Position numbers and translations under genes: made by a program. A model generated the notes under the pieces. That model searched no databases. It was given only the letters and a program-made list of their open reading frames with translations, and had not been told where the DNA came from. Shown here piece by piece: positions 22,883-40,777 of a stretch of 40,777 bases of DNA; position 1 is the stretch's first letter, and each line of letters begins with the position of its first letter. The stretch lies in NCBI GenBank assembly GCA_964438445.1, contig CAYTLV010000001.1:22763-63539 (forward strand), in the 5' to 3' direction. The DNA is from an uncultured bacterium (GTDB lineage: Bacteria; Fidelibacterota; Fidelibacteria; Fidelibacterales; Fidelibacteraceae).

Positions 22883-23929
22883 TTATATTCCTAATTGAAT
22901 GCTTACTTGGTTTACGAGCCCTAAGACTCCATAATTTACTATAGCATAATCAATATTCAAAGGCATACTGTTAATATCAAGATTTAGTCCTACACCTGCC
23001 GAAAAAGTGGTTTCATCATAATTTAAATGATAACCGGCCCGAAATGCGAGCAATTCATTGTATACATATTCCAATCCGGTATTAAAACGAAGGAAATGAT
23101 CCAGCGGATCATTAGCGTCAAATGACAAACTAATGCGATGGTTTGGATTCTTGATGATCTCGCTGTTCGGACCCAAAATATCCACAAGAATTCCCATACG
23201 GAAAGTCAAGGGTAGTGACCATTCCTTAGTATTTAGCCTTGCTTCAGTTTCGGGATTGCCTTCATAAAGTGGATCCGTATCTACATCAATGTTCAGATCG
23301 GGACCATCAAATTTAAATTTTGTGCTAAAGTTGGTAATTGCCATTCCAAGTTTAATACCAAGAATACCTGTGTCAAACTGTGAGCCGATATCAAATCCAA
23401 AAGTATTTGCCGTTTCACGCCAAATTGTTTCATTGACAAATTTAGCCGTGCCACCTACACTCAGGCGATCCGTCAGCTTCCGGGCATATGATATACCAAT
23501 TGCAAGATCACTGACCGAAAAGAACTCTCCTGAACCCTCAGGGAAATCCAATGTTGTAACTTCCATCTCACCGGAATTTAAATACGTAACATGAACACCG
23601 AAATAGTCAGATCGACTAATTTGAGTTCCAAATGCAACATACCCATGTTGAATTCCGGCATATAGAGATGTGTAAGTCCCATAAAACGATTGTTGGCTTA
23701 TCTTTGCCAAACCTGCAGGATTCCAGAACAGGGCGGACATATCATCCACACCGGCCACATAAGCGCCACCGAGTGCGGCTGCCTTCGCGCCCACTTCCAG
23801 TTTTAGGAATTGACCGGCATGCGTTCCAACTTTGGAAATGTCCTCGGGAATATCAATTTCCTGAGCAAATCCAATTCCTGCAAACAGCAGTGCCAAACCT
23901 ATAATTAATGAACGCTTCATTTTAATCAT
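22883..23929 (-). CDS. PorV/PorQ-family outer-membrane beta-barrel protein (cassette B)
   Basis: Signal peptide, then GTHAGQFLKLEVGAKAAALGGAYVAGVDDMSALFWNPAGLA, which matches the PorV/PorQ N-terminal signature as I remember it. Alternating beta-strand pattern to the C-terminus. AAGGAG 7 nt upstream of ATG 23929. Confidence 0.72.
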   Translation of the reverse strand: MIKMKRSLIIGLALLFAGIGFAQEIDIPEDISKVGTHAGQFLKLEVGAKAAALGGAYVAGVDDMSALFWNPAGLAKISQQSFYGTYTSLYAGIQHGYVAFGTQISRSDYFGVHVTYLNSGEMEVTTLDFPEGSGEFFSVSDLAIGISYARKLTDRLSVGGTAKFVNETIWRETANTFGFDIGSQFDTGILGIKLGMAITNFSTKFKFDGPDLNIDVDTDPLYEGNPETEARLNTKEWSLPLTFRMGILVDILGPNSEIIKNPNHRISLSFDANDPLDHFLRFNTGLEYVYNELLAFRAGYHLNYDETTFSAGVGLNLDINSMPLNIDYAIVNYGVLGLVNQVSIQLGI

Positions 23930-23940
23930 CTGCGCTCTCC

Positions 23941-26900
23941 TTATCGAATAATGGCAAATTTGCCAATGTGTTTTCTACCATCAGGAAGCTCGACAGCGAA
24001 GACATAAAGTCCCGGCGCGATTTCCTGACGATTGATCGTTGTCAGGTCCCATGCTTCAGAATCATCATAGGGATTATTGTGCTCTACCATATTTACGAAT
24101 TCACCGGTTAAGGTAAATATCTTGATCGTACATTCTGTTGGAAGATTGGTAAACAAAAGCTTTTTGGTATACTGACTCTGTTCCCATTGTGCAGACACAA
24201 AATAGGGATTCGGAACTACTTTAATAGCTCCCAGATCATCTTCTGTTAAATTTACTTCCTCACTAAAATCAGCTGCTGTAAATCTAAATTCATCACCATC
24301 TTCAAAAGGTTTGTGTGTTCGGAAGTACAGGGTATCACCCGGAGTAAAGGGGTAACCTGTTGGAGCAAGCAATAAAGTATCCCATATAAATTCAAACGAC
24401 CATGTAGCCATGGGCATGGCTGCAGGATAGCCCGGCACGCCCGTTTCAAAAAAGATTATTTCATCTAAATAGTTGAGCGTATCGTCTTTTGATATTGCTT
24501 CTTCCTTGATCCAGATGGGAACTCTTTCGCCATCCGGTAAACGTATCGCTTTAAATGGGACAGGACCGGCAAAGGCAGGAATGGGAACATTCCAATAAGC
24601 CGTATCTAATATTTCATCCGCAGCCCCAAAAATAATTGCATAATCCGAGGCGGTCGGATAAGGCAAAGTGGAGCGGGGTTCTGTCGTGATATATTTTTGA
24701 CCGGATGCCCATGAAATTGAATCAACTGCTGCTTTTTCAATATTGTCAAATACAACCTGAAGACCATCAAATATTGGACGATAATTTGTGACAACATTGG
24801 GGTCAATATCATTGTTAGCCAATTCACTTACCAGTGTGTCATTCTCGGTCATATCGATCACGGTATATTTGGGAGCGTTAATTTTGGGACCCTTTATGGC
24901 AGGACTTGCAGAGATCGTGATTTTATATTCATGATCCGTTACATTTCCGGGTTCCGCTATTCTAATCAAGGTCTCGGTATTTCCAATAGTGCTGTCACCG
25001 GGAACAAGATTAATATGTGCTTTGATATCGATAGGATAGCGCGACGGCGTGATCCTTACAAATTGCGGAGAAAGAGGTGTCGTCCCTTTGGGATTTTCCA
25101 AGCTTTCCAGTGCATAGGTTGACCATTGATCATCCACATTGGTTGTTGACCAAGTGGTATCATATCTGATCACTTCGTAGACTATACCCGAAGAATCATC
25201 AATAACTTCTTCTGTCGATATTTCAATTGAATAACCAGGTTCAATACCAATATCAAAGGCCGTTACAGCGTAAGTATATTCTTTACCGATCTGAACATCT
25301 TCATCAAGATATTCATGTTGTAGACCGTTATCTGTTCCCAGGTTCATCCATGGCGCCACAGGATCAGGACCGGAAACACCACGGTTATATCGGGCCATAT
25401 CTTCATCAAATGTCAAATCATATTGGGCAAGAGGCTCAAAACCAACTTGTGTTTGATTTACATCTAACACCGGGTCACCCCAGTTCTGACCGCCATCAGT
25501 AGATTTATAAAGACGGTATCCTTCAAAATCCAAATAGCCGGTAACGATATCTTCAGAACTTTCAGCGGCATCATCCCAAACAATACGAACAGCCATTTCC
25601 TCTTTAACGGGATCCCATTCACTAACGGCAGAAACAGTAGGTGCCTGCGGTGCAGAAAAACCCTGATAGCGAAGATCGTACATGATCTGTGCCATATTTG
25701 CATTACGATTAAGATCCGGTACGTTTTCGCCCATGATCACAGCAAATGAGAACATAGCCGTATCGCCCACTGAAAAATCGAATGGACCTGCAGACATCAT
25801 ACAAACACAGTCAAGGCCATCGGGAAATTGTGTTCGAAGACCCTCCATACTATCATAATGCGGATTTAGTTTGCCGCCATTATCAGGATGGAAAAACCAT
25901 ACATCTTCTCTTTCTGTTAAACTGGTCGTATCACCAGCCATCAATTGATACATTAATTCTTCTTTTTTAGGAGATTCGGGTTGCGTACCGTTACCAATAA
26001 ACGGCCCGCCCGAACCTTCCTTATCTGTAACACCGGGTCTATTATACCAATCAAACCAATGCCAGTCTGTTAACCCTAGTTCTTCACCCGGAGCAATATA
26101 ATTTGTCTCATCTACCCATACTGTATCGCTTGCTTGTGGTGTATCAAGTAGTTTAACGGCAGCAAAGGCATCAACATCGAAACGGCCATCACATTCTTTT
26201 TGATCCAGATCGTAGATATAGGCATAATCATAGGTAGCATTATAACCCATCATATCACCATCATTGGTGTTACATGGCCTATATCCGCCGCCGTAATAAG
26301 CAGAAAACATATCTGCGTCAAAATAGAAACCACAGTATGCACCTTTATAATCAAAACCCGCACCATTATTTAAACCGTATTTATCACTTTCGTTCACCAC
26401 TTTCATGGTAACGAACATGATGTCTTCTGCATAAGCACGACCATAAGAATGAACGGTTGCGTAAACACGAGTTCCGGTTGGATACCCATTGTATGCTGAA
26501 ACAGGTTCACGATCGGCGAATTTATCATCAAATTCAAGATAAATATCTACATCAGATGTAAAACGTCCCTCAACTTCTTCACCGTAAGTGGGTGATGATG
26601 GATCGGTATCTACCGCGTACCATCCCGGCCAAAAACGTTCTTCTTCATCTTCATCATTTGTTCGGGTGGGCCAAGATTCGGGAGCAATAGACGTTGCCAA
26701 TAAAGGCCATGAATCATTTTCATCTGTCCATGTAGGTGCAGCATAATCGCCGGCTGTTATATCGCCGGAGAATGTTTTTCCCTTTGATCCCAAAACAACA
26801 TCCCAGTCTGTATTGATCTGGTTTCCCGTGCGGTCCAACCAAGATTCAGAAACTGTAGAACCCCAATAAATGGTGTCGGTTCTCGCAGGATCCGGATGCC

Positions 26901-27207
26901 GGCGATTAGCCCAAGGATAGGCATTTCCGTCTTTATCACTTCCGGGGACTCCGATCATGAAAGATACGTTTGCAAGGTACTGGTAATCACCCCATGCACC
27001 CGCAACATCATCTTGCCAATGATCAACAAAGTTCCCGTAGTTCAAGATTGCTGTTTTAAATTTTCCCTGATCGGCATAACTTTTAGCCCGTTCATAAAGG
27101 GGATTAGCAAATGTTTTTCCAAACTGCGAGCCATATTTATCTTCAAGCGGAATCGCAAGAAGTAAAACTGGTAGTAATAAACATCCTAAGCGTTGAATAT
27201 ATTTCAT
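23941..27207 (-). CDS. 1088-aa secreted protein of unrecognised family with FN3-like middle region and divergent T9SS-like CTD (cassette B)
   Basis: Sec-type N-terminus with no lipobox. Internal landmarks CVCMMSAGPFDFSVGDTAMFSFAVIMG, then VRIVWDD...FEGYRLYKS...YTYAVTAFD. C-terminus VVPNPYF + 13-aa insert + LLFTNLPTECTIKIFTLTGE...GLYVFAVE...GKFAIIR. AAGGAG SD. 11-nt gaps to both neighbours. Confidence 0.8.
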   Translation of the reverse strand: MKYIQRLGCLLLPVLLLAIPLEDKYGSQFGKTFANPLYERAKSYADQGKFKTAILNYGNFVDHWQDDVAGAWGDYQYLANVSFMIGVPGSDKDGNAYPWANRRHPDPARTDTIYWGSTVSESWLDRTGNQINTDWDVVLGSKGKTFSGDITAGDYAAPTWTDENDSWPLLATSIAPESWPTRTNDEDEEERFWPGWYAVDTDPSSPTYGEEVEGRFTSDVDIYLEFDDKFADREPVSAYNGYPTGTRVYATVHSYGRAYAEDIMFVTMKVVNESDKYGLNNGAGFDYKGAYCGFYFDADMFSAYYGGGYRPCNTNDGDMMGYNATYDYAYIYDLDQKECDGRFDVDAFAAVKLLDTPQASDTVWVDETNYIAPGEELGLTDWHWFDWYNRPGVTDKEGSGGPFIGNGTQPESPKKEELMYQLMAGDTTSLTEREDVWFFHPDNGGKLNPHYDSMEGLRTQFPDGLDCVCMMSAGPFDFSVGDTAMFSFAVIMGENVPDLNRNANMAQIMYDLRYQGFSAPQAPTVSAVSEWDPVKEEMAVRIVWDDAAESSEDIVTGYLDFEGYRLYKSTDGGQNWGDPVLDVNQTQVGFEPLAQYDLTFDEDMARYNRGVSGPDPVAPWMNLGTDNGLQHEYLDEDVQIGKEYTYAVTAFDIGIEPGYSIEISTEEVIDDSSGIVYEVIRYDTTWSTTNVDDQWSTYALESLENPKGTTPLSPQFVRITPSRYPIDIKAHINLVPGDSTIGNTETLIRIAEPGNVTDHEYKITISASPAIKGPKINAPKYTVIDMTENDTLVSELANNDIDPNVVTNYRPIFDGLQVVFDNIEKAAVDSISWASGQKYITTEPRSTLPYPTASDYAIIFGAADEILDTAYWNVPIPAFAGPVPFKAIRLPDGERVPIWIKEEAISKDDTLNYLDEIIFFETGVPGYPAAMPMATWSFEFIWDTLLLAPTGYPFTPGDTLYFRTHKPFEDGDEFRFTAADFSEEVNLTEDDLGAIKVVPNPYFVSAQWEQSQYTKKLLFTNLPTECTIKIFTLTGEFVNMVEHNNPYDDSEAWDLTTINRQEIAPGLYVFAVELPDGRKHIGKFAIIR

Positions 27208-27218
27208 TAATTAACTCC

Positions 27219-30104
27219 TTAAAACTCCACTTCTACAAAGAAATCAAGACTTCTCTGATCATCATAATACCAAGGACGATCATAGATGGTTGAACTTCTT
27301 ATACCATCAAGAATATAACCCTCGTCAATACCACCGGGATTGTCCGGAGTCCCTGTACGTGGATAAACGTATAGAGGATTTTCTCTATTGAAGAGATTTG
27401 TACAAACTAAACCAAGTACCAGGCGACTTGAACCAATAATATCAATATACTTTCTAATAGCAAGGTTTGTCGTGTAATAAGCCGGCATACGTTCACTATT
27501 TTGAGGACCCAATTGATCATTGTTCAGAACAGGAGTATAGGGTGCTCCCGAGATCGCCACAAAGGTCAGGTTTGTCATTGTGTTTTGGAAAAGGTTATAT
27601 GAACCGACCGGAATTCCGTATCCCTTGGGAATGCGGAATGTCAATTGTGCACTAAAATCGTGTGTTCGGTCATAATCCTGCAAAACCTCATTCTTCGGCA
27701 TAGTAAGAGGGTTTTCTCCGTTTCGGTAACCTTCCCATGGATCGGAACGGTTTCCTTTCGCCACTGAATAAGTATACTGTATATTGCCGGTCAAGAATTT
27801 ACCCCGGCGTTTTTCAAAGATCATATCCATACCACGAGCTGAACCATAATCATAGTTTACAAAGGTCGTATAGGTTACAGATCCCACACGAACTTGTTCT
27901 GTTGAGTTCATGTTACTGTAATCCTTTGACCAACCAACAACTCCCAGCACATAATTACGTGCTACTTCAGTATTAATACCAAATTCATAACTGGTTACTT
28001 TTTGAGCACTAACATCGGGATTACCAACAAGCGGCAAAGGAGTATTAAAGAATTCATCTAAATTATCGCGCTCATCAATATTGTTATAGATATCGCGATA
28101 AGTAGGATTTTGATAATAAATACCGTATCCGAACGTAAACGTTGCTTTATCTGTAATTACATGTGAAAATCCCAAACGGGGACTCCAAAGAAATTCCCAA
28201 TTAGTCGGAACAAGCACAGAATCCGGAACCCGGGGATCTGCCCACATGGAATCATTTGCGTTGGCTGCGTCAAAACGTAAACCGGCATTGATAACCATCC
28301 AGGGATATTCGATCTTATCTTGAAGATAACCGGCAAATTCTTGGGGAATACGATTATAGTTTTCAGTATAAGGCGTCGATAACCAAGGTAATTGTACTTC
28401 GTCAAAGACAATATCATGTGTCTTATAGTCGAGTCCACTCTTTATCTGATTATGCCTGCCAACCTGTGATGTAAGATCTAATCTATATTCCTGAGTACGA
28501 GTACGAGTATAGTGAAAATATCTATCTGCGCCACTATAGTAATACTCTCCGGAATAATTCTTTAAATTAGGGCTGGCCTGATACTCTATGGTCATTTTTT
28601 CATCAATAAAAGGATATAATATATAAGGTTGGTTGTACTGTTCAGGTGTAAGCCACTCACCCATTTCATCACCATGATGCCAAATGGTATCTGCTCCTGA
28701 GAGCACATACTCAAGTGGAATATAATTTCCTGTTCCATCATCCACGTAAGGAACTTGAGTGCTATCATAGAAATTTTCTAAATAACGCTGTTCTACCCAA
28801 TCGGGGTAACCGTCGCCATCGGAATCATAGTTCCGTACACCCATGGTCATTTCTTGTGTAAAATTAGAATAATTAAAAGTGTAATAGGTCTTGTCATTTA
28901 ATTGATGGCGCCATTCTAAAGCATAGCGTTTTGACACTTTTTCTACTTCATTTTTACCAAGATCATAATAAATATAAACAGGGTCAAACGCCTTATAATT
29001 TGAATTTACATACCAATGCGAAAGATTTAAACGAATCTTTGGCGACACAAGAAAAGTCAGTTTTGAAAATATATCAAATGTATTGTCAAATCCAAATGAA
29101 CGCCATCCTGCAATTGTGTCTAAAGGATTAATGTGATTATCTTCGTTATAATCGCTTAGGGGATCATCCATATCAAAAGCATAATCGTCAAATTCGTATA
29201 CCGCATAAGCGCTATTCGTTTGATCAAAACTGGTCCACCAACGAATTCTATCCGTAAAAAGGGGTCCGCCAAAACCACCTGCGATCTTGGAATAATTTCG
29301 CAACTGATCTTGCTCTGCTGAGACGGGCCCAAAATTACTGCGTTCATAGCGTAGCATTCCGGTAAATTTGCTTGGGCCGGTTTGCGTAACGGTATTGATC
29401 ATACCGGACATTGCATCGCCGTACTCAGCATTAAAAAAACCCGTCTGGAAATCAACCTGCGCTACAGCAAATTGGTTCAAACGCGTACCTTTACCCTTGC
29501 CTCCGTAAAGCGGGTTTTCAAGGTACATACCATCAATCATGAAACCTGTCTCATTGGCTCGACCGCCACGAACATGAATCTGCTCGATACCGCGTTCTTC
29601 AAATCCGGGGATACCCAAATCGGCAGTCTTGATCTCAATAATACCCGATTGCAGTGTATAAACTTCAGTCATATCACGAACGGGAAGATTAAGCACCTGT
29701 TCTGATTCCATGATAATCTTACGTCCAACTACATCTTTTTCAACAGAAGGACGATCTGCAATCACTTCTACAACTTCGCCTTGGACAGCCTCGACTTCCA
29801 TACGAACGTTAATAATAGTTGATTGATCACGAATAACTTTAACACTTCGTTGGATTACTTTTTTAAAGCCGATCATTGTATATGTTACAGTAAATTCACC
29901 GATCGGAAGGTTGATAATATTGTAATAGCCTGTCTGGTCCGCAAAGGTCCCCATATGGGTATCTTCAACCATGATGTTGACACCCATAAGCGGTTCATTG
30001 GTCCCGGCAGCCACAATGGTACCGCGGATAGAACCAACAATATCGCCATAAGCCATGCCAAAAAATAGCAGACAAACTACAAAAAGGATATAACCTTTCT
30101 TCAT
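27219..30104 (-). CDS. TonB-dependent receptor-like outer-membrane protein with N-terminal CarboxypepD_reg domain (SusC/Oar-type; cassette B)
   Basis: Signal peptide. CarboxypepD_reg-like GSIRGTIVAAGTNEPLMGVNIMV...GYYNIINLPIGEFTVTYTMIGF. Linker GEVVEVIADRP. Plug IHVRGGRANETGFMIDGMYLENP. Long Gly/aromatic-rich barrel. C-terminal FFVEVEF with terminal Phe. Confidence 0.85.
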   Translation of the reverse strand: MKKGYILFVVCLLFFGMAYGDIVGSIRGTIVAAGTNEPLMGVNIMVEDTHMGTFADQTGYYNIINLPIGEFTVTYTMIGFKKVIQRSVKVIRDQSTIINVRMEVEAVQGEVVEVIADRPSVEKDVVGRKIIMESEQVLNLPVRDMTEVYTLQSGIIEIKTADLGIPGFEERGIEQIHVRGGRANETGFMIDGMYLENPLYGGKGKGTRLNQFAVAQVDFQTGFFNAEYGDAMSGMINTVTQTGPSKFTGMLRYERSNFGPVSAEQDQLRNYSKIAGGFGGPLFTDRIRWWTSFDQTNSAYAVYEFDDYAFDMDDPLSDYNEDNHINPLDTIAGWRSFGFDNTFDIFSKLTFLVSPKIRLNLSHWYVNSNYKAFDPVYIYYDLGKNEVEKVSKRYALEWRHQLNDKTYYTFNYSNFTQEMTMGVRNYDSDGDGYPDWVEQRYLENFYDSTQVPYVDDGTGNYIPLEYVLSGADTIWHHGDEMGEWLTPEQYNQPYILYPFIDEKMTIEYQASPNLKNYSGEYYYSGADRYFHYTRTRTQEYRLDLTSQVGRHNQIKSGLDYKTHDIVFDEVQLPWLSTPYTENYNRIPQEFAGYLQDKIEYPWMVINAGLRFDAANANDSMWADPRVPDSVLVPTNWEFLWSPRLGFSHVITDKATFTFGYGIYYQNPTYRDIYNNIDERDNLDEFFNTPLPLVGNPDVSAQKVTSYEFGINTEVARNYVLGVVGWSKDYSNMNSTEQVRVGSVTYTTFVNYDYGSARGMDMIFEKRRGKFLTGNIQYTYSVAKGNRSDPWEGYRNGENPLTMPKNEVLQDYDRTHDFSAQLTFRIPKGYGIPVGSYNLFQNTMTNLTFVAISGAPYTPVLNNDQLGPQNSERMPAYYTTNLAIRKYIDIIGSSRLVLGLVCTNLFNRENPLYVYPRTGTPDNPGGIDEGYILDGIRSSTIYDRPWYYDDQRSLDFFVEVEF

Positions 30105-30119
30105 ACAATCCCCTTTAGG

Positions 30120-30152
30120 ACAGGTCGCCCTTCCAATGGAAGGGCGACCTGT
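30120..30152 (-). promoter_or_regulatory. perfect 15-bp GC-rich hairpin (3-nt loop) between the BNR gene stop and the receptor RBS
   Basis: ACAGGTCGCCCTTCC-AAT-GGAAGGGCGACCTGT. On the minus strand it is followed directly by CCTAAAGGGGATTGTATG (SD plus start of the 27219-30104 gene) and has no U-tract. Confidence 0.6.
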
Positions 30153-30167
30153 ATGTTTGTAAACAAT

Positions 30168-32258
30168 TTATTTTAATAATACTGATTTTCGAGTAACAGT
30201 TACATTATCCCCTGTCAGAGAATAGAAATAAATACCCGAGGACATGTTTGAACCGTCAAGTTCAATTTCATAATGTCCACTTCCTTTATATTCACTGAAA
30301 AGAGTTTTAACTTTTCTACCTAAGGTATTAAATACTTCAAGATTGTATTTACCTGCTTGATGGATATCAAAATTGATCGTTGTAATAGGATTGAAAGGAT
30401 TGGGATAATTTTGTTCAAGCTCGAATTTAGCTGGAACATCAACAAAACCTTCAATTCCACTGACGACTGATGAATAATCTACATCCATGAAATATAAACG
30501 ATTCTTATAATCTTCCGGTACTGCGTCTGAAGTATCATCATCTACAGTATGGGTAGCATAGTCCGGAACCTGATATATAAGATAAACATGATCATCGGTA
30601 GCATCGGGATCAGCATGTGCACAAATTTCATCGAAGTCATCTGTGTTCGTTGCGTTAATCTCTGTCTGCCAAGTTTGACCGGCGTTTATTGAACGTCGAA
30701 CATATATATCATAAGATTTTTTATATAGCAGTGTATCGCCAGGGGATTCGGGGTCTTCTTCTTTATAGATATTACCTTTGGGATAAACGGCGTAAATGAC
30801 ATCAGGGTTTTCGGTGGACGTTGCCATTGCGGGGAAAAAACTTTGCCATGCGCGATCACCATGACCATAAGAAAAACGCCAGGTATTCTGCATACTTGTT
30901 ACAAAAGATACGCTCCAAACTGCTGATTCTGATGCCGGATCTGCACAATAAAGATGATAAAATCCACAATATTCATTTACTGTTGGCATAATATAGCCCG
31001 ACTCTTCAGATTCAGGAATAACCAAACACATAAAGTGAACACCACCATTTGCATCAACAACCACGTCATTATCATATCCGATAAATAGACCCGGGTAATT
31101 TAAAGTATCAAGAATTGCATCTTCAGAACCTGTAAGCTCATCAACGATCACGGTATCTGTACCATTAACAACTTCAAATTGTTGTGAAGGAAGATAAACG
31201 TCAAAAATATTATCATCAAAAATATGGTCCTCAACATAATAATAAGGGACATCATCATCAAAAGATGTTTCACTCCATGTTGCACCATAATCAGTTGTTT
31301 TACGGAATTTAAAGGTGTGATATGCGTTATCCTCAACCATAGTATCAATCCCCGTATGCCAGTACGCAACATTTGCAATATAGCCTGTACCATTATCTGC
31401 AATTGAGATCATAGCATCTGAGGTGGTTGAGCCGTCTGCAGTACCTTCTTCAAAATAGGTCAAAGCATCAAGGATTTTCACAGGTTCCTGAAAGGTAATA
31501 GCTCCGGTCGTGATATCATTTGAGCGGAATAAGTACATGTTATGACTACTAATTGTTCCTGTAACGTCAAATTCGCGCCACGTGGTAAATGTCATATTTA
31601 AATGTCCGGTTCCGCCGTCTTCTTCACAATAGTCCGGGCAACCCATCCACATAGCTTCCGGGTTTGTTGTTACATTACCAATAACCTGGGGTGGGGACAA
31701 ATAGGGAAAACCATATGGCAGTAGTGTTTCATCTACAGAAAATAATGGAAGTGCGTCATTTTCAACTCCACTTTCCAAGCCGGTGTATTCAGTCCACGCG
31801 ATCATAAGACTGTTTCCAGCACCAATGGCAGAAGGATATCTTGCTGCCAATTCACCGGGAGATGTTGCGTTTACATTACTTTGATTTGACCATGTTACAC
31901 CATCGTTCAGACTGTATGCCATTCCAACAACACCAGAAGATGCTTCAATACCGGCCCACTGGCGATAAGCCATAACAAATGTGTTTCCATTATGAGAGAC
32001 AGGATTAGTAACGCCGGAGACAAGTCCAAAACCATTTTTACTTGAATCGATCAATACAGCCGCAAATGCCGGATCATAAGCTGATGCGGATTTCGCGGTA
32101 GCTTTTGATAACTGTTCACTATAGATCTCTCTACCTGTTTCTTTTACAATTCGCTCTACTTTACCTTTGTAGTTTAACGGTAATATTTCCGTTTGAACTG
32201 CAAAAACTGAGCTAAGTAACAACACCGCCACAAGTGTTGCGATAACAATGCGTTTCAT
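30168..32258 (-). CDS. secreted BNR/Asp-box repeat (beta-propeller-like) protein with T9SS type-A CTD
   Basis: Three Asp-boxes: SLNDGVTW, TTDYGATW, SINAGQTW. CTD is YPNPFNPITTINF...SGIYFYSLTGD...RKSVLLK. The track start 32270 is TTG. ATG 32258 (MKRIVIATLVAVLLL) has GGAGG 5 nt upstream. Confidence 0.8.
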   Translation of the reverse strand: MKRIVIATLVAVLLLSSVFAVQTEILPLNYKGKVERIVKETGREIYSEQLSKATAKSASAYDPAFAAVLIDSSKNGFGLVSGVTNPVSHNGNTFVMAYRQWAGIEASSGVVGMAYSLNDGVTWSNQSNVNATSPGELAARYPSAIGAGNSLMIAWTEYTGLESGVENDALPLFSVDETLLPYGFPYLSPPQVIGNVTTNPEAMWMGCPDYCEEDGGTGHLNMTFTTWREFDVTGTISSHNMYLFRSNDITTGAITFQEPVKILDALTYFEEGTADGSTTSDAMISIADNGTGYIANVAYWHTGIDTMVEDNAYHTFKFRKTTDYGATWSETSFDDDVPYYYVEDHIFDDNIFDVYLPSQQFEVVNGTDTVIVDELTGSEDAILDTLNYPGLFIGYDNDVVVDANGGVHFMCLVIPESEESGYIMPTVNEYCGFYHLYCADPASESAVWSVSFVTSMQNTWRFSYGHGDRAWQSFFPAMATSTENPDVIYAVYPKGNIYKEEDPESPGDTLLYKKSYDIYVRRSINAGQTWQTEINATNTDDFDEICAHADPDATDDHVYLIYQVPDYATHTVDDDTSDAVPEDYKNRLYFMDVDYSSVVSGIEGFVDVPAKFELEQNYPNPFNPITTINFDIHQAGKYNLEVFNTLGRKVKTLFSEYKGSGHYEIELDGSNMSSGIYFYSLTGDNVTVTRKSVLLK

Positions 32259-33139: not shown

Positions 33140-33163
33140 AACACAAGGGAGGGGATCGAGAGC

Positions 33164-33256: not shown

Positions 33257-33287
33257 AAAAAAACCCTCCGCGAAGGAGGGTTTTTTT
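33257..33287 (-). terminator. rho-independent (bidirectional-looking) terminator after cassette A
   Basis: Minus strand reads AAAAAAACCCTCC-TTCGC-GGAGGGTTTTTTT, 22 nt after the stop at 33309. Confidence 0.75.
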
Positions 33288-33308
33288 ATTATGTCTTAAG
33301 TATTCGAC

Positions 33309-34337
33309 TTAGATACCAATTCCGAGACAGATTAGATTTTCTGTTCCGAGGAATTGTCCTGGACGAAATACATAATCTACAGAAATCTTAGTTGTGCTTA
33401 CATCAAATTTAACACCTGCACCGAGGGTTAAACCATAAACGCTATAACCAAGATCTGCACCGGCTGCATTCAACTGAAATGCATAGCCTGCGCGTACAAA
33501 TCCGATACCGGCAAAGTTAAGTTCAGTACCCACTTTGAGGTAATCGGTTTCGGCATTACTATTCTGATAAACTGCGCTGACCAGAATCATGTCTGTAGGC
33601 TTATATGTCAAGCCCATTTCCATGCTTGCCGGTAGCTGATCCGAAGAGGTGAGAACATTGAAGAAATCATCATATGTTTCATCTTCTTCTCTTGCAGAGA
33701 ACAACATTGCGGTTCCATCATATTCCATGTTGGTACCAATATTGCGAATGGCAAGACCAAGTCCCAAACCTTCCACATCCATTAGGTTTTGATACTGTAA
33801 ACCAAAATCGAAAGCAAAAGCCGTACCGCTTGCACGGGGGATGCTTTCATAGATTAGTTTAGCATTCAAACCAATGCTAATGCGGTCGGTTAATTCTCTA
33901 GCATAGGATGCGCCAAGCACCGAAAATGTCGGTGAGAAGGTAGCACCGGTACCGTCCATATCATGAACGGTCGTAATGGCGATTTCCCCCATTGCGAGAG
34001 ATTTCATACTGACAGCCAACACGCCATTTGATCCTGTATTAAATGCAAGAGCAAAATAGTTTGTTGAAATGTCTGCTATAATCTTTGCCGAGGAGAACAT
34101 ACCGTCCACCCGGCCCTTAACATCGCTCAGACCTGCAGGATTCCAGAATATTGCATCTACACCGGCTGTGTAAGCAATATCAGATCCGCCCATACCCAGC
34201 GAGCGTCCGCCAACGGGGATCTGGACCTGAACACCGGCTGTTGTGCCGGTTCGGTCAATATCTCCCGCAAAGGCAACACCCACAAACAGGGCTGCGATCA
34301 GGATAAGCGACATGAATTTATTTAAAAGTTTCATCAT
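33309..34337 (-). CDS. PorV/PorQ-family outer-membrane beta-barrel protein (cassette A)
   Basis: Signal peptide, then GTTAGVQVQIPVGGRSLGMGGSDIAYTAGVDAIFWNPAGLS. Paralogous along its length to 22883-23929 (e.g. YARELTDRISIGLNAKL vs YARKLTDRLSVGGTAKF). AAGGAG SD. Confidence 0.72.
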   Translation of the reverse strand: MMKLLNKFMSLILIAALFVGVAFAGDIDRTGTTAGVQVQIPVGGRSLGMGGSDIAYTAGVDAIFWNPAGLSDVKGRVDGMFSSAKIIADISTNYFALAFNTGSNGVLAVSMKSLAMGEIAITTVHDMDGTGATFSPTFSVLGASYARELTDRISIGLNAKLIYESIPRASGTAFAFDFGLQYQNLMDVEGLGLGLAIRNIGTNMEYDGTAMLFSAREEDETYDDFFNVLTSSDQLPASMEMGLTYKPTDMILVSAVYQNSNAETDYLKVGTELNFAGIGFVRAGYAFQLNAAGADLGYSVYGLTLGAGVKFDVSTTKISVDYVFRPGQFLGTENLICLGIGI

Positions 34338-34373: not shown

Positions 34374-37300
34374 TCAATAATATTCCAGAATTTGTTTCTT
34401 CTGAACGATCATGACTTTCAAGATCTTCTGTACACCTGTTACACCATCAATTACTACATCAGGCATATCGATATGCGCAATGTACATACCACTACCAACA
34501 GGGATGTCTGACTCATTGGCCAAAGTCCACTTTTCGAACTGACCACTCACGTGCTCAATTGTTTTAACCAATACACCAGCAAGATTGAATATCTTGATGG
34601 TTGCCGTTGTCGGCAGGTGTGTAAAGGTTACATACTGATCATAAGGCGTCGTTGCCAGTTCGTTGTATGCGTAGTATGGATTCGGGAATACATTGATCTT
34701 ATCAAGTGCAAGTGTCATCAATGAATCGCTTGTTTCCGGAGCATAATCAGCAGTTGAGAATGCAAATACATCTTGGTTGGCAACATTTACATTAGAAGCA
34801 AAAATTTCTATTTCAAATTCTTCTTCTACATAATACCAGCCACCTCTGTCAACTGGTGAAATATTATACAACACAGGCCAAGCAAAGCAATCGTCTGAAC
34901 TGCCTCCCGGCAAATAATCGGTATATGTTGCATCATAATCATCATTGAGAAAGTAAATATACTCATATCCACCTGCAGCAGCATAAATTGAATCCACAGG
35001 ATTATATCCCATATCCCAAATATTATTTTGGCCGGGAGTTCCTGTGTCTTCCAAAAATGCTATTTTCAGTCTGCGTGGAGGAATGCTTTCAGTATCATAA
35101 GCTGCTATTGGAATGTCTGCCAGAGAAGTACCCCAGTTACCCCAACCGTCAATGCTAACAGCCTTAGACCATCTATCTGGACTCGAAAGCTTACTATTTG
35201 CCATTTTTTCCGCCATTGTAGCTACACTACCCTTGACAGTATCTCCGGCAAAATACAGTTTCACATCCATGTAGTCTAAACCTGATGTTAATGTAGTTCC
35301 AAGATGTTGATTTCCATTACCTAAACCACCCCAGAGACCAATCCATCCTTTATCTCTACCTGAAATCCAACGACCACCGTCAAAATCCCAACCAGCAAGA
35401 TAAGCATCATCGTAACTGGCATAAGCGGGACCATAATTTGTGCTGTAGAAATCGCCGTGTTTGTTTGGATTGATACCCACAGGTGGACCTGAAACTCTGA
35501 TACCTAAACCATCAACGAGAGTTGTTGCTTCAAGATCTTCCAAAGTTCCAAGAACTTTTTGACCTGTTACAGCAACCGTATCAAGATCAAGATCGGTCAA
35601 TGCCCATTGTGTTTCCGAACTATCAGTATTGAAAACAAAACTGATCTCATAATCGTGACCTGTTACAGCCACGGGATCAATCACAACGAGTTGGATCTGA
35701 CCATCGCTAATACCTACTGTATGCGTTGTTGGAATCGCCATATCAGGAGCAACTGTAGCTGTACCCGGTAGTGATTCTTGAAGTGTAGCTGCCAATGCAA
35801 TCAAAGAAGATTCTTGAGCTTGTTCAGACAAGCGTCCGGGGTCTAAATTTTGATTGTATGCAGTTACGGCAAAATAATAAGTTTTACCTTCATACAGAGG
35901 TTTTCCATCAATATAATCCCAATCTATGGTTAAGAAACGTTCAATTCCCGAATCAGAGCCATAAACGATCGGAACGCTTACGGGGCTACCTTCATATTCA
36001 TCGGGGGTGCGTGTTTCGTAAATCATTCTAATACCATTAACGATATCAAAAGTTGCAAGTCGAATAGCTTGATCTTTCGTTGCAGTAGCATGAGGTAACT
36101 GATAAACGTTATATCCTTCAAATACATATCCGGATACTACAGTTTCTTCGACCTGAGCTACACTTTCCTGGTCTGATCCCCATTCAAGAATAAGAGTATT
36201 TTCTTGAGGACGAACCGTAACATTCGGTGAAGCCGGAGGTTTCGGAACTTCAAGGAACAAACCATTAAACAAGGTCTGTGCTACAGCATCCGTAAGTTTA
36301 AGGTCTGCGACTGAACCGATATTGTCTGCACCTAAACCACCAAGAATAGCCACAACGACTTCTTGTGATTCGCCCGGGGCGAAAGTAAATGGACCGGATG
36401 ACAAACACATGCGGCGGTCACCGGGTGTAAAGTAGCTTTCTGTACCATCAACTTCGAGTGCTCCGGGAATAGTAGGATCTCCATAAAGCGGAAACTTTGT
36501 TGTTGCTGCACCGGCTACGTTACCAAGAGTCCAAGGAGAAGGAGCATCCACGTCTTCAGTCGGTTTGAAACCCCTGAGCAGGTTATAGAACTCAAGAGTA
36601 CCGACATAGTCGCCAAGTTCCGGATCTTCAATAGCGGAACCCGCTGCAAACCAACCGAATGAAGTCATAGGAAGGTTTTCGTGATCCAAAACATATTCGA
36701 GTCCACTAATAGCAGTGTCGCCGACACTGGCTATCATAGGGCCCTGGAAAAAGTCATAACCGAAAGCGGGGGGTGCGAGGCCAAAGACATCGTAATCGGC
36801 ATCGGTAGCTTCACCATTGTAGGAATAGCCCATACTTAATGTCGTGTCACAACCTGCATAGTCATTGGCTGCAGAACCCAGATCGGGGTCAGCCCACATG
36901 GATACATATACATCGGTCATGGTGGTATTTGATTTGTTGATCAGTTTGTTGGATCGGAAAATGATCTGTCCCAAACGAACACCGGCCTGATTGTAAGCCC
37001 AGAGAGTCGTCTGTAGCTCGACACCAATAGGTTGTGAGCCGTAAAGACTGGTTGTTACGGTTGCGCTATAGTCGTTTACTACATACCACAACACCTGATC
37101 TGCCTGAGCGATACCAGGTGTTTCACCGATATCGGGGTCGTAAACACCGTCATCATTAAGATCATAAAATGGAGCACCCCATGCTGTTGGCCATTCTTCC
37201 CAATCTAATGCATATTGATCCATTATGTCTTGGGTCATGGCTTCGGTAACACTGCTGGCTGAAGTTTCATTCAGCTCTGCAGCATCCGCGATAAGCATAG

Positions 37301-37745
37301 CGTGATTCAGGCTTAAATAATCGGTGCGAATACGGTAAACGCGAACGAGTGGGTCCGCAGCACTGGCAATCTCATAAGTTCCATCTTCGTAATTTCCGCC
37401 GGTAATAACACGGCCTGGTTGTGTTCCGATATTATAGGTTTGTCCACCAACACGAATTTCTTCGCTTGTGCCGTATTTACCACCCCAAATAAAACCATCC
37501 TGATAGATAGCGCCGGCTGTACCGCGAGGATAAATACCTCCGGAACTTCCATTCGGCTGTTGAGCGGTTTTACCATTGTAATAAACCCAGTAACCCCAGT
37601 TTGAAATATTCGACATCGTCCGGGTTACCTGGCCGGCTGTCGTTGCCGCTGTTTTCGCTAACGGTTGGCCATCCAATGGCTTGGCCACCAATCCCACAGC
37701 GAAGAGTAACGCGACAATGGTTACTATTGTAATTATTTTCTTCAT
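34374..37745 (-). CDS. ~1120-aa secreted protein of unrecognised family with FN3-like middle region and divergent T9SS-like CTD (cassette A)
   Basis: The track start 37775 is TTG. AAGGAG at 37757-37752 sits 3 or 6 nt before ATG 37748 or ATG 37745, giving the signal peptide M(M)KKIITIVTIVALLFAVGLVA. Landmarks RRMCLSSGPFTFAPGESQEVVVAILGG, then LILEWGSD...FEGYNVYQLP...YYFAVTAYN. C-terminus VFPNPYY + insert + VTFTHLPTTATIKIFNLAGV...GMYIAHID...KVMIVQKKQILEYY. Confidence 0.8.
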   Translation of the reverse strand: MKKIITIVTIVALLFAVGLVAKPLDGQPLAKTAATTAGQVTRTMSNISNWGYWVYYNGKTAQQPNGSSGGIYPRGTAGAIYQDGFIWGGKYGTSEEIRVGGQTYNIGTQPGRVITGGNYEDGTYEIASAADPLVRVYRIRTDYLSLNHAMLIADAAELNETSASSVTEAMTQDIMDQYALDWEEWPTAWGAPFYDLNDDGVYDPDIGETPGIAQADQVLWYVVNDYSATVTTSLYGSQPIGVELQTTLWAYNQAGVRLGQIIFRSNKLINKSNTTMTDVYVSMWADPDLGSAANDYAGCDTTLSMGYSYNGEATDADYDVFGLAPPAFGYDFFQGPMIASVGDTAISGLEYVLDHENLPMTSFGWFAAGSAIEDPELGDYVGTLEFYNLLRGFKPTEDVDAPSPWTLGNVAGAATTKFPLYGDPTIPGALEVDGTESYFTPGDRRMCLSSGPFTFAPGESQEVVVAILGGLGADNIGSVADLKLTDAVAQTLFNGLFLEVPKPPASPNVTVRPQENTLILEWGSDQESVAQVEETVVSGYVFEGYNVYQLPHATATKDQAIRLATFDIVNGIRMIYETRTPDEYEGSPVSVPIVYGSDSGIERFLTIDWDYIDGKPLYEGKTYYFAVTAYNQNLDPGRLSEQAQESSLIALAATLQESLPGTATVAPDMAIPTTHTVGISDGQIQLVVIDPVAVTGHDYEISFVFNTDSSETQWALTDLDLDTVAVTGQKVLGTLEDLEATTLVDGLGIRVSGPPVGINPNKHGDFYSTNYGPAYASYDDAYLAGWDFDGGRWISGRDKGWIGLWGGLGNGNQHLGTTLTSGLDYMDVKLYFAGDTVKGSVATMAEKMANSKLSSPDRWSKAVSIDGWGNWGTSLADIPIAAYDTESIPPRRLKIAFLEDTGTPGQNNIWDMGYNPVDSIYAAAGGYEYIYFLNDDYDATYTDYLPGGSSDDCFAWPVLYNISPVDRGGWYYVEEEFEIEIFASNVNVANQDVFAFSTADYAPETSDSLMTLALDKINVFPNPYYAYNELATTPYDQYVTFTHLPTTATIKIFNLAGVLVKTIEHVSGQFEKWTLANESDIPVGSGMYIAHIDMPDVVIDGVTGVQKILKVMIVQKKQILEYY

Positions 37746-37777
37746 CATTATCTCCTTAACTATACGTTTCATCAATG

Positions 37778-40777
37778 TTAGAATGATAAGCGAACGCCAA
37801 AGGTAATCTGACGGGGATTGCCAAATAGCTCTCTACTAATGCTATCCCAGTAAGCCTGACCATTGACCAAATTAATGGCTGTATACATATCTATATAATC
37901 TTGTCCACCATTATTTGCGATCGTAGTTGCTGAGCGAACAGGGTCGGTCAGGAAACCATCGTCTTCCGCGTTTCCGGTGAATTCATATACATTGACAATA
38001 TTCTTACGGTTAAAGAGGTTGGTAACCATAACAAATACATTGGCGTCCAAAGATCCGATCATAAAGGATTTGTCCAAACGAAGATCGGTAGTGAACTGCC
38101 AAGGTGTTGTTGAGGCACCAATAGGTTCCAATGCTATTCTATCACGGGTATCATCCATATAGTCGATACCTGCGGTATAGGGATCAGATTGACCACCGAC
38201 TTTTACATCAACAAATGTAAAGGGGTGACCACTTGAGAAACCAATCAAAAGGTTAGCGCCCATGTTTTCAAGCAGGAAGCCACCATCGTTATCACCGAAG
38301 CGATAATCGAGGTTGATCGATCCAGTATGCATCTGTGAAAAATCCAAAGGATTGATCGTAGACGGCATTTGGGTGTTCATATAAAGAGCACCATGAGCTG
38401 CCGTACTGTTAGATGCAGTACCTTCCGCCATAGTTAGAGTATAATTGATACTTCCTGCAAGACGGTTTGTACGGCGCATATTCATACGAACTTCAACACC
38501 TTTCTGTGTTGCAAAATCGCCATTTTCAAATCTGTCGTAATAACCCGGAATCGTTGATCCGGACGTAGGAAGCTGTTTAACCACTTCAACCAAGCCTTTT
38601 ACATTTTTGTAAAACGCTGTCAGGTCTAATGCAGCAAAATCTGTGATCTCGCGACGGAAACCAACTTCGTATGAAGTGGTGCGCAGCGGATCCAAACCAA
38701 ATCCAACCGGGTTCTGAAAATAGAAACCCTGGCGGACAATATGACGAGCATAAGTATAAGAAGAGAAATATGCTTCGTTCAATCGCGGCATCTGTACAAA
38801 CTGACCATAATTCAAATAGAAGACAGTTTTATCATCAATTGGGAAAGAGAAACCGATACGAGGACTTAAATTGATAGACGGTGCCTTATTTACCCATGCA
38901 GAATCCGCTAACATTGAGGTAGCAGGATCAACAGCCGGGTTGGCCGGGTCAACAAGTTCTCGGTCGTCTGTATCAAAATAATCAAATCTAAGACCGGCAT
39001 TGATGATAAGATCTTTATATTCGATCTTGTCCATTAAATAAGCTGCAAACTCAGTCGGATGTTTGGGACCATCAATATAGGTACCATCATCATAAACGGT
39101 TTGTGTTGTCGTTTTATTGCCAAATGCATCATAGCCATAAGCGTCAACACCTGCGTTTTGGATCCATTGAGCTATTGGAATAGAATCCAAATTACCATAC
39201 TGAGTATAACCGGAAACCGAACCGGGTTCGCCTGCATAGATCATAGCAGCAGGAGCAACACCGAAGTAGCGAATTGTATATTGTTTAATATCAGCACCTA
39301 TTTTAAGCTCGTGATGTTTATTGATTTGATTGACATAATCAATATTCAAGCCAACGTAGGTTTGTTCCTGATTCAGGTAAAAGTTTAAAGGTTCGCCATC
39401 GCGCTCAACAGGAAAACCATTAACAATATAATTGTATTGAGGTCTGTAGGCGTTACGGTAAGTTACTTCACCACCGGTATATTCGGAAACTGCTGTACTA
39501 TCCCACCATTTTTTCCAGTCGTTACCAAAATACGGATCATTCAATTCGCGTTGGTAGCGGAAATAACTGGCCTTCACATCAATATATGATGTGTTTGAGA
39601 ATAGTTTAGTAGCTTTTGCCGATATAAGTGTTGTGGGTGTAGTATAATAATAGGTTCTGTTGTTCATCGTGTTAAGCATAACCGGTGCATTGTATGAACG
39701 GTCATATTTTGTCCAGTCGTGCAACACATCAAAACGAAGGCGAATCGGAAGATCAATAGTGACTGATCCGTTAATCGCATAAGTTAAGTCTTTTGAACCT
39801 GTAGTAAATCCATCAGGATATACCATATTAACTGTATCAGCATTTGTGTCATCATTCGGATTGTTGTTGATCATATTCAGAAATTCGAACCCTTCGCTGA
39901 AACGAACTTCGGAATCCAGTTGTTGGTCATACTGTCCGGCAACAAAAAATTTAACTTTTTTGCCGATCGGGCCACCAAGAGTGGCGATCATGGAATTATG
40001 TCCATAATTATAAGTTCCAAGAACTTTTTGTCCGAGAGTTGGATCACGGAAACCGTCTGTACGGCCTTCAAATGATCCTGTTAATTTTGAGCTACCACTT
40101 TTGAGCTCAGTTTTCACGATACCTGCATTTGCATTTCCCATATCAGCGGTATAACCGCCGGCAAATACTTGAATTTCTTCAATAGCATCATGAATGATCG
40201 TCATTACGTTATTATTATTGGTCGGCAATGATGTTGACACACCACCTACTAAAAACTTAACTTCGTGAGGACGACCACCACGGATATGAACTTGTCCATC
40301 CTGGAGGACCACTCCAGCCATGCCAGCAATAATGTTCGCAACACCGCGAACAGGTACATTTTCAAGTTCATCTGATGTTGTCATGGAAACAGAGGATGTC
40401 ACAGATTTTTCGAACAATTTACGTTCTGCCACAACGGTCACTTCCTGACCCGCGATAACAGATCCTTCAAGTTCAAAATTCAACTCGGTCGTAACACTTG
40501 AAAGAACACGAACTTTTTGGATCGTGAGTTTCTTATGTGAAATGATCGATGCTGAAACATCATAGGCTCCAACCGGGACGTTCAAGATAATAAACGAACC
40601 GTCAGCATTCGCTGCCGCTCCGAGAACCGTTCCTTCTAGAAGAACATTGGCTCCCGCTAGGGGTTCATTTGTCTTGCCGTCCGTGACTACTCCCACAATC
40701 TTACCTGTAGCCTGCGCGAAAACGCACATAGGTAAAATCATAAGAATAGCTAATACGGCTACAACAAGCTTCTTCAT
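37778..40777 (-). CDS. TonB-dependent receptor-like outer-membrane protein with N-terminal CarboxypepD_reg domain (SusC/Oar-type; cassette A)
   Basis: The ATG is the last three bases of the window. Signal peptide MKKLVVAVLAILMILPMCVFAQA. GKIVGVVTDGKTNEPLAGANVLLEGT...GSFIILNVPVGAYDVSASIISH. Linker GQEVTVVAER. Plug VHIRGGRPHEVKFLVGG. C-terminal FGVRLSF. The promoter lies outside the window. Confidence 0.85.
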   Translation of the reverse strand: MKKLVVAVLAILMILPMCVFAQATGKIVGVVTDGKTNEPLAGANVLLEGTVLGAAANADGSFIILNVPVGAYDVSASIISHKKLTIQKVRVLSSVTTELNFELEGSVIAGQEVTVVAERKLFEKSVTSSVSMTTSDELENVPVRGVANIIAGMAGVVLQDGQVHIRGGRPHEVKFLVGGVSTSLPTNNNNVMTIIHDAIEEIQVFAGGYTADMGNANAGIVKTELKSGSSKLTGSFEGRTDGFRDPTLGQKVLGTYNYGHNSMIATLGGPIGKKVKFFVAGQYDQQLDSEVRFSEGFEFLNMINNNPNDDTNADTVNMVYPDGFTTGSKDLTYAINGSVTIDLPIRLRFDVLHDWTKYDRSYNAPVMLNTMNNRTYYYTTPTTLISAKATKLFSNTSYIDVKASYFRYQRELNDPYFGNDWKKWWDSTAVSEYTGGEVTYRNAYRPQYNYIVNGFPVERDGEPLNFYLNQEQTYVGLNIDYVNQINKHHELKIGADIKQYTIRYFGVAPAAMIYAGEPGSVSGYTQYGNLDSIPIAQWIQNAGVDAYGYDAFGNKTTTQTVYDDGTYIDGPKHPTEFAAYLMDKIEYKDLIINAGLRFDYFDTDDRELVDPANPAVDPATSMLADSAWVNKAPSINLSPRIGFSFPIDDKTVFYLNYGQFVQMPRLNEAYFSSYTYARHIVRQGFYFQNPVGFGLDPLRTTSYEVGFRREITDFAALDLTAFYKNVKGLVEVVKQLPTSGSTIPGYYDRFENGDFATQKGVEVRMNMRRTNRLAGSINYTLTMAEGTASNSTAAHGALYMNTQMPSTINPLDFSQMHTGSINLDYRFGDNDGGFLLENMGANLLIGFSSGHPFTFVDVKVGGQSDPYTAGIDYMDDTRDRIALEPIGASTTPWQFTTDLRLDKSFMIGSLDANVFVMVTNLFNRKNIVNVYEFTGNAEDDGFLTDPVRSATTIANNGGQDYIDMYTAINLVNGQAYWDSISRELFGNPRQITFGVRLSF

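Follow-up and report, generated by a model that had tools for sequence, protein, structure and literature searches.

Among described outer membrane systems, the uptake units SusC/SusD and RagA/RagB combine a TonB-dependent transporter carrying a CarboxypepD_reg domain with a surface protein encoded directly after it. SusD is a lipoprotein with a tetratricopeptide repeat (TPR) fold; the pairs are paralogous, co-diversify and occur as several cassettes per genome, with genes for additional surface proteins downstream (such as those for surface glycan-binding proteins after susCD) and secreted hydrolases or proteases encoded nearby. Lipoproteins are also the partners in the surface-protein-capped transporters BtuB-BtuG and XusA-XusB. 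A different mode of surface attachment is found in the T9SS (type IX secretion system), where PorU and PorZ are substrates with uncleaved C-terminal domains, that of PorZ being bound by PorQ and that of PorU by PorV (PMC10202324), so that in Porphyromonas gingivalis each is held by a dedicated 14-strand barrel of the PorV family. Cognate PorV-like barrels have been proposed to shield such domains from cleavage, as PorP/SprF-like barrels would for type B cargo (PMC10202324), the gene of which lies next to that of its own PorP/SprF-like anchor barrel, for example in SprB/SprF (Gorasia et al. 2022, PMC9143113). Here, we analyse a stretch of 40,777 nucleotides (hereafter, the window) from an uncultured member of the Fidelibacterota (contig CAYTLV010000001.1), which carries two copies of a three-gene cassette encoding a TonB-dependent transporter (the receptor), a protein of about 1100 residues (the giant) and an outer membrane β-barrel of the PorV/PorQ family. 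The trio shares with SusC/SusD and RagA/RagB all of the organizational features listed above, and its giant and barrel recall PorZ and PorQ, yet it is a member of neither group; rather, it is a novel combination centred on a large family of uncharacterised proteins. With moderate confidence, we read the cassette as a lipoprotein-free counterpart of the SusC/SusD or RagA/RagB uptake unit, in which a T9SS-exported, barrel-anchored giant would capture substrate for the transporter. This functional reading rests on genomic context.

In both copies, the genes follow each other on the minus strand in the order receptor, giant, barrel. Cassette A consists of receptor A (37778-40777; 999 aa), giant A (34374-37745; 1123 aa) and barrel A (33309-34337; 342 aa), and cassette B of receptor B (27219-30104; 961 aa), giant B (23941-27207; 1088 aa) and barrel B (22883-23929; 348 aa). 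The longest open reading frame (ORF) of giant A spans 34374-37775 and opens with TTG; the start codon is most likely the ATG at 37745, because AAGGAG is located 6 nt upstream of it. The genes are separated by 32 and 36 nt in cassette A and by 11 and 11 nt in cassette B, and all four downstream genes, that is, the two giants and the two barrels, have their own AAGGAG-type ribosome-binding sites. The ORF map of the whole window thus reproduces the order, coordinates, spacing of 11-36 nt and translation signals given in the initial annotation, which had been made from the letters of the DNA alone. That annotation spoke of a cassette present twice, which holds for the two copies but understates the locus, cassette B being the core of a conserved block of six to seven genes. 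Canonical factor-independent termination is apparent just past the stop codon of barrel A, where CCCTCCTTCGCGGAGGG is followed by a T-run (33264-33276, minus strand), so that cassette A is a self-contained three-gene operon. This is the only convincing terminator following a scan in which such signals were not enriched (17 versus 14.8 expected); a promoter scan was uninformative (58 sites versus 55.8 expected).

All three positions are paralogous between the cassettes, as had been claimed, with overall identities of 22-30%. In BLASTP comparisons, the receptors are 25-29% identical (E-values of 8e-34 and 1e-32), the barrels are 29% identical over their full length (E = 8e-35), and the giants align across the C-terminal domain (E = 1e-15) and across about 430 residues of the middle (E = 1e-9). 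Both receptors end in Phe, another feature that we could reproduce. The 18-nt run identical in the two barrel genes (23711-23728 and 34131-34148) is real as well, with two matches versus none expected. Its reverse complement encodes F-W-N-P-A-G, a conserved peptide of the barrels, and the identity is therefore ascribed to shared codons; recent gene conversion was rejected as its source.

The assignment of the receptors to the TonB-dependent transporters is based on domain matches, structural modelling and their orthologues. Receptor A matches the Pfam families CarbopepD_reg_2 (54.8 bits) and Plug (PF07715; 33.7 bits versus a cut-off of 23.9); receptor B, in which a CarboxypepD_reg domain is also present, scores 23.2 bits for Plug, just below the cut-off. 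Although a sequence search of the PDB returned no match for receptor B, its AlphaFold2 (AF2) model (pLDDT 85.1, pTM 0.82) matches PfeA, YddB, PhuR, FusA, BtuB, FhuA and XusA in Foldseek, with E-values down to 6e-29 and TM-scores on the target of 0.63-0.83 for classical TonB-dependent transporters; XusA (9gbc) and BtuB3 (8p98), both capped by surface proteins in their own systems, are among the matches. As modelled, receptor B is a complete 22-strand plug-and-barrel TonB-dependent transporter. The barrel family PF00593 is not matched by the window receptors at E < 0.01 and is passed by two orthologues (P0259 and P0300) at 50-59 bits. A motif resembling the TonB box separates the N-terminal extension from the plug (QEVTVVAER in receptor A and GEVVEVIADR in receptor B, in which G109, V112 and V114 are nearly invariant in the receptor family alignment) and is a putative TonB-engaging segment. 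Whereas the CarboxypepD_reg and Plug domains reported by the initial annotation were thus recovered, the first of its two options for the receptors, SusC-type or Oar-type, could not be sustained. Receptor A scores 43.8 bits against the SusC/RagA model TIGR04056, far from the cut-off of 368.25, and aligns with it only over the N-terminal 136 residues; receptor B does not match the model, and no SusC structure is found within the top 50 Foldseek matches of its AF2 structure.

The giants carry type I (Sec) signal peptides and no lipobox. More generally, as previously annotated, neither a SusD-like domain nor a canonical lipobox was found by Pfam searches and signal peptide inspection in the six cassette proteins or the other large ORFs of the window. 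Apart from noise and weak matches in the C-terminal domain, the giants contain no Pfam domain even at E < 5, and searches of Pfam, NCBIfam and the PDB yielded no family match, in agreement with the view that they fall outside any characterised family. The AF2 model of giant B (pLDDT 80.5, pTM 0.65) is β-rich and not helical in the manner of TPR proteins, which sets it apart from SusD. It comprises a β-rich head without a known fold match, with a helical insert at 415-460 (residues ~40-520), a domain resembling fibronectin type III (FN3; residues ~525-650), a β-sandwich stalk (residues ~660-990) and a C-terminal β-sandwich domain (residues 996-1088), which resembles that of PorZ. Giant A has a Sec signal peptide, an all-β body, an FN3-like domain and a divergent T9SS-type C-terminal domain. 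Foldseek comparison of the whole giant B model with the PDB gave no convincing global match, only FN3/Ig arrays. The motifs SxGPFxF, FEGYxxY and YxYAVTA, initially noticed as common to the two giants, map to invariant or nearly invariant columns in an alignment of 56 family members; the latter two are located within the FN3-like domain of giant B.

The C-terminal domain of PorZ is the sole PDB match of the giants in sequence and profile searches (E = 0.048), with 28% identity and a shared FA(V/I)IR ending (FAVIR/FAIIR). PorZ is also the top Foldseek match of giant B (probability 0.99), with TM-scores to 5m11 of only 0.10-0.14. The similarity is confined to this domain: against the full-length PorZ model NF052228 (cut-off 260 bits), giant A scores 26.2 bits and giant B 15.1 bits, and the bodies of PorZ (two β-propellers) and PorU (a C25 peptidase) are unrelated to that of the giants. 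With the type A T9SS domains, the C-terminal domain of the giants aligns at the PNP, G and GxY positions. The type A sorting domain model (TIGR04183/PF18962), proposed initially as a check on the giants, is not reached by giant A (17.5 bits versus 23) and is not matched by giant B. NCBI names some homologues of giant A 'T9SS type A sorting domain-containing protein', and some giant homologues weakly match the type B family CHU_C (E-values of 0.002-0.06). In its landmarks and at the level of the fold, the domain resembles T9SS C-terminal domains, that of PorZ being the closest.

In the head, six aspartates (D219, D228, D297, D318, D466 and D498 in the numbering of giant B) are invariant in the family alignment, and the motif W382-H383-W384-F385-D386-W387-Y388 is nearly so. 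Neither HExxH nor an obvious catalytic triad is discernible in the alignment of this region; the conserved acidic and aromatic residues may form a metal- or ligand-binding site. Local Foldseek matches to the N-terminal β-sandwich of glycoside hydrolase family 94 (GH94) had TM-scores of 0.13-0.21, and we assigned neither fold nor function to the head on this basis. We also considered the giants as PorU, the head of which is expected to be a C25 caspase-like fold, and rejected this possibility, given that no C25 or PorU model is matched and that the modelled head is β-rich.

The barrels are PorV/PorQ-like, as had been suggested. Barrel A (147.9 bits) and barrel B (205.2 bits) pass the family model NF033709 (cut-off 90), and barrel B matches PorV in the PDB (6h3i_F; E = 7e-7). 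By contrast, the equivalog models are not reached, the best scores being 84.3 bits for PorV (NF033710; cut-off 250), 105.4 bits for PorQ (NF033711; cut-off 220) and 78.2 bits for PorV2 (NF052325; cut-off 325), and barrel A obtains about 30 bits against the BamG model (cut-off 250). The alternative of FadL transporters was discarded, because Toluene_X gives 21.7 bits against a cut-off of 29.7, while the PorV/PorQ family model is passed. By sequence classification, the barrels are therefore paralogues within the PorV/PorQ family and not orthologues of its named components. In the adjacency of a putative cargo gene and its own anchor barrel gene, and in the weak CHU_C matches of some giant homologues, the trio resembles SprB/SprF; however, the anchor in that system belongs to the PorP/SprF family rather than to PorV/PorQ, and no TonB-dependent transporter is involved.

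The closest homologues of the window proteins, with 84-93% identity, come from Candidatus Marinimicrobia (Neomarinimicrobiota, Fidelibacterota). Relatives of giant B were confirmed in at least 561 stretches of GTDB species representatives spanning Marinimicrobia, Calditrichota, including the cultured Caldithrix abyssi, and KSB1, and giant A has more than 1758 homologues. By an exhaustive HMMER search, the giant family comprises 11,509 clusters (50% identity; E ≤ 1e-3), and 1,704 of these reach E ≤ 1e-30. In many clusters, the match covers only positions ~485-1094 of the profile and the N-terminal halves differ, suggesting a conserved anchor and stalk module with interchangeable heads.

We assessed the synteny by searching 84 fetched loci with the window proteins (tblastn). 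The strict order receptor, giant, barrel is found in 39 of the 50 loci with sufficient flanking sequence and, upon inspection, in approximately 44, the barrel still being nearby in 5 of the 11 loci that fail the strict criterion; receptor and giant are adjacent in 56 of 66 loci. The trio is thus conserved in related genomes from at least three sister phyla of Bacteroidota (Marinimicrobia, Calditrichota and KSB1), and this cross-phylum synteny excludes chance adjacency. Of the outcomes that the initial annotation had named as refuting, those amenable to analysis, namely, a characterised family for the giants, a lack of conservation of the trio and a non-PorV score of the barrels, did not occur. 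The search starting from distant receptor homologues reaches either receptor, giant and barrel or an extended cassette, receptor, giant, barrel, giant′, barrel, examples of which are found in L003 (10001-17278), L089 (11430-18803) and L075 (5353-11629). In the extended cassettes, giant′ is 715-732 aa long and matches only the C-terminal half of the giant profile. The two 339-aa barrels of L003 have identical scores, pointing to a recent tandem duplication or an assembly artefact. In L088 (189-10819), the order is giant, barrel, receptor′, giant′, where receptor′ (920 aa) passes PF00593 and has no listed CarboxypepD_reg match; given the lack of a second barrel, one barrel may serve two giants, or receptor and giant may constitute the minimal pair. 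Peptidases of the S8, M6 and M43 families with T9SS C-terminal domains adjoin the trio.

The two cassettes represent distinct lineages. Orthologues of receptor A with 37-49% identity adjoin A-type giants in other phyla, and receptor and barrel genes also border the A-type giants of Calditrichaceae and pelagic Marinimicrobia. Throughout, the only receptors and barrels next to A-type giants are of the A type, with 36-50% identity to the A proteins of the window versus 23-29% to the B proteins, and B-type giants have only B-type partners at their sides; the pairing holds in both Marinimicrobia and Calditrichota. Hence, duplication involved the cassette as a whole, and co-diversification of its three components has followed. 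From this pairing, the duplication would be at least as old as the split between Marinimicrobia and Calditrichota.

In the mechanism that we propose, the giant would be exported through the T9SS, and its PorZ-like C-terminal domain would stay uncleaved and bound to the cognate neighbouring barrel, thereby holding the giant on the cell surface. The conserved C-terminal half, comprising the FN3-like domain, the stalk and the C-terminal domain, would act as a docking module, the variable N-terminal head would bind the substrate, and the adjacent TonB-dependent transporter, which by virtue of its putative TonB box would be an energised gate, would import the captured material or fragments thereof. 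The initial annotation had proposed a tripartite surface machine with the giant as a substitute for SusD or a surface glycan-binding protein, a reading that our results support in part. The giant-barrel pair fits the PorZ/PorQ principle, because a PorV/PorQ paralogue is encoded 11-36 nt downstream of a protein with a PorZ-like domain; in contrast to PorZ/PorQ and PorU/PorV, the pair described here exists twice, each time linked to a TonB-dependent transporter, and shows no sign of a role in cargo attachment. The variable heads, the extra giant-barrel pairs per receptor and the T9SS peptidase neighbours follow a logic akin to that of polysaccharide utilisation loci. For cassette B, the substrate is likely a protein or peptide, since an S8 protease is among the T9SS-secreted neighbours and since, in this lineage, the gene for an Lrp/AsnC regulator lies upstream. 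Lrp/AsnC regulators respond to amino acids, and RagAB, which works with gingipains, offers an analogy.

Somewhat more doubtful, in our estimation, is the fuller version of this model, a three-protein, two-barrel 'utilisome' that would have evolved in the sister phyla of Bacteroidota, with the uncleaved PorZ-like C-terminal domain of the T9SS-exported giant of about 120 kDa sitting in a dedicated PorQ-like barrel that is itself packed on the transporter. To our knowledge, these phyla appear to be devoid of SusD lipoproteins, an assumption checked only in this window. They are also the hosts of the trio, which, in addition to the PorV/PorQ-family barrel, distinguishes it from SusC/SusD. A precedent for such packing is BamG, a 14-strand barrel of the FadL/PorV type that stands against a larger barrel in the β-barrel assembly machinery (BAM) complex of Bacteroidota and serves as a platform for extracellular proteins (PMC12578637).

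Several observations weigh against the cassette being an uptake unit. Dependence of the giants on the T9SS is deduced indirectly, since the type A cut-off is failed and CHU_C is touched weakly in some homologues, and neither Pfam nor Foldseek recognizes a binding or catalytic domain in the head. Furthermore, 6 of the 50 loci, all from pelagic Marinimicrobia (L060, L068, L077, L079, L083 and L084), retain a B-type giant, at about 6001-9040 in most of them, without an adjacent receptor or barrel, so that the trio is not obligatory in cis. The distance-matrix correlations across 30 loci (receptor-barrel r = 0.95, receptor-giant 0.82, giant-barrel 0.75) support coupling within the trio but are suggestive only and may be confounded by shared phylogeny and by saturation of the reference MAM-like gene downstream of barrel B (mean distance 1.41), with which the trio members correlate at 0.62-0.75. 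When this gene is controlled for, the partial correlation between receptor and barrel is 0.91, which hints at either direct contact between the two barrels or shared shifts in the rates of membrane protein evolution. Finally, the order of the block around cassette B, maintained across phyla next to housekeeping genes, resembles core envelope machinery more than a niche-specific uptake locus.

In the orphan loci, the neighbours of the giant, known from two annotated examples, are unrelated or housekeeping genes and include those for a cyclophilin, a pyridoxal phosphate (PLP)-dependent enzyme, an adenylate cyclase carrying Rieske and ferredoxin domains, a peptidase of the M48 family and a methyltransferase. 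In L077, a large protein with a T9SS tail is encoded upstream and an M4 (thermolysin-type) peptidase downstream.

The orphan giants, together with the giant′-barrel pairs that have no receptor of their own and the receptor-giant pair that occurs without a second barrel, are what would be expected if the components were only loosely coupled. The giant and the barrel would then form an anchored enzyme, adhesin or binding protein in the style of PorZ/PorQ, for which the PorZ-like domain and the adjacency of the two genes suffice, and an uncapped transporter would merely be co-regulated and import the products. We regard this as unlikely, because the receptor has diverged, together with giant and barrel, into matching A and B lineages, a pattern seen in the physically paired SusC and SusD, and because receptor and barrel show the strongest distance correlation and receptor and giant are adjacent in the large majority of loci, as enumerated above.

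The block around cassette B (16241-32726) encodes, in this order, a BNR protein, the receptor, the giant, the barrel, a MAM-like protein and an S8 protease, and is kept across Marinimicrobia, Calditrichota and KSB1 in the fetched loci, where the trio is usually embedded in this longer order. Such a depth of conservation would also befit a housekeeping surface machinery, for instance, a T9SS accessory or attachment module or an apparatus for surface-coat assembly. The count of at least 561 stretches with giant B relatives among species representatives would be compatible with roughly one copy per genome, the block is located beside mreBCD, the transketolase gene and tRNA genes, and the giant persists even where receptor and barrel are not adjacent; moreover, PorU/PorV and PorZ/PorQ exemplify how a protein with such a C-terminal domain and a PorV-family barrel can be part of the machinery itself (PMC10202324). 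Nevertheless, outside the C-terminal domain, the PorU and PorZ models find no match in the giants, the head is β-rich instead of adopting the C25 caspase-like fold, and the occurrence of multiple paralogous cassettes in a genome or contig, with giants that vary in their heads, fits diversification with respect to substrates. We also know of no role for a TonB-energised transporter in T9SS attachment, and overall consider a core envelope function quite unlikely.

The transporter could, in principle, also work outward. Oar of Myxococcus xanthus is a TonB-dependent transporter needed for the secretion of PopC, and its architecture resembles that of the receptors, with an N-terminal CarboxypepD_reg domain, a plug with a TonB box (a putative one in the receptors) and a barrel. 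Orthologues P0256-P0260 pass PF25183 (OMP_b-brl_4) at 42-47 bits (cut-off 30), which the window receptors do not; we take this family to have been built on Oar-like barrels, the database describing it only as an outer membrane β-barrel domain. Under such a scheme, the transporter would help the giant to cross or insert at the outer membrane, the barrel would anchor it, and the T9SS translocon would be dispensable, which would agree with a C-terminal domain too divergent for the type A model. However, 28% of all TonB-dependent transporters have the Oar architecture, which is dominant among importers of Bacteroidetes and hence is not diagnostic. Furthermore, the giant has multiple domains and a mass of ~120 kDa, its C-terminal domain keeps the T9SS fold and the PNP, G and GxY landmarks, and the four canonical T9SS cargo proteins encoded in the window indicate that the T9SS is available. 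Unlike the receptors, Oar has no adjacent giant or PorV-like gene, and nothing in the trio points to export as the direction of transport. An Oar-like role thus appears highly improbable, and import by a capped transporter remains our preferred interpretation.

In the dark and low-oxygen ocean, Marinimicrobia (SAR406) rank among the most abundant heterotrophs. Genome studies of this group go no further than recording numerous TonB-dependent receptors and Por-tail proteins (PMC5596340, PMC8359207), the trio is unmentioned in the genome paper of Caldithrix abyssi, and our full-text literature searches found no description of a trio of transporter, giant protein and PorV-like barrel. If the cassette is a T9SS-anchored uptake unit, it provides a testable mechanism for polymer uptake by Marinimicrobia, gives a function to a protein family that is very large and lacks a Pfam domain, and extends cognate PorV-family anchors for uncleaved C-terminal domains, as well as capped TonB-dependent transporters, beyond Bacteroidota. 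Should the utilisome version hold, the ~11,500-cluster family with its interchangeable heads would represent the main polymer-capture apparatus of Marinimicrobia, Calditrichota and KSB1. The presence of the trio in the cultured C. abyssi renders these propositions amenable to experiment.

The genes that accompany cassette B in the conserved block are all located on the minus strand. The conserved upstream neighbour of receptor B encodes an uncharacterised 700-aa protein (30168-32270), which combines BNR/Asp-box repeats that are only weakly recognizable with a T9SS C-terminal domain of type A (Por_Secre_tail, 46.5 bits). Starting 32 nt downstream of barrel B, and with its own ribosome-binding site, the MAM-like gene (19953-22850), a neighbour kept across phyla, encodes a likewise uncharacterised protein of 965 aa, in which a weak MAM-like (InhA-like) domain is accompanied by a T9SS C-terminal domain of type A. 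The conserved last gene of the block (16241-19627) encodes a 1128-aa S8 subtilase (Peptidase_S8, 163.6 bits) with an FG-GAP β-propeller and a type A T9SS domain (Por_Secre_tail, 34.7 bits). A fourth canonical T9SS cargo protein, of 228 aa, with a signal peptide and a type A C-terminal domain (40.1 bits), is encoded on the plus strand at 15231-15917. Directly upstream of the block, at 32277-32726 on the minus strand, is the gene for the Lrp/AsnC-family regulator (Pfam HTH_24, HTH_AsnC-type and AsnC_trans_reg), found in this position only in close relatives (L005-L018), in which the cassette A barrel is also located upstream of the regulator, as in the window.

Two noncoding segments of the locus merit description. 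Most of the 63-nt gap between the stop codon of the BNR gene and the start of receptor B is filled by a perfect 15-bp inverted repeat with 10 G-C pairs (30120-30152; ACAGGTCGCCCTTCC ATT GGAAGGGCGACCTGT), which is not followed by a T-run on the coding strand and may serve to stabilise RNA, as a processing site or as a partial terminator by which the proportion of upstream to downstream transcripts is set. Between the cassette A terminator and the Lrp/AsnC gene, a gene-free stretch of ~580 nt (32727-33308), with no ORF of at least 100 aa and no Rfam match, is presumably where the B block has its promoter and operator. In the window as a whole, the Rfam scan detected nothing beyond two tRNA genes on the minus strand, those for tRNA-Thr(CGT) at 12933-13006 and tRNA-Val(TAC) at 16050-16125. 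These two genes separate the outer membrane locus from housekeeping genes, among them the transketolase gene, mreBCD, the genes for PBP2 and RodA, smpB, tyrS, tilS, ftsH, folP and cdaA.

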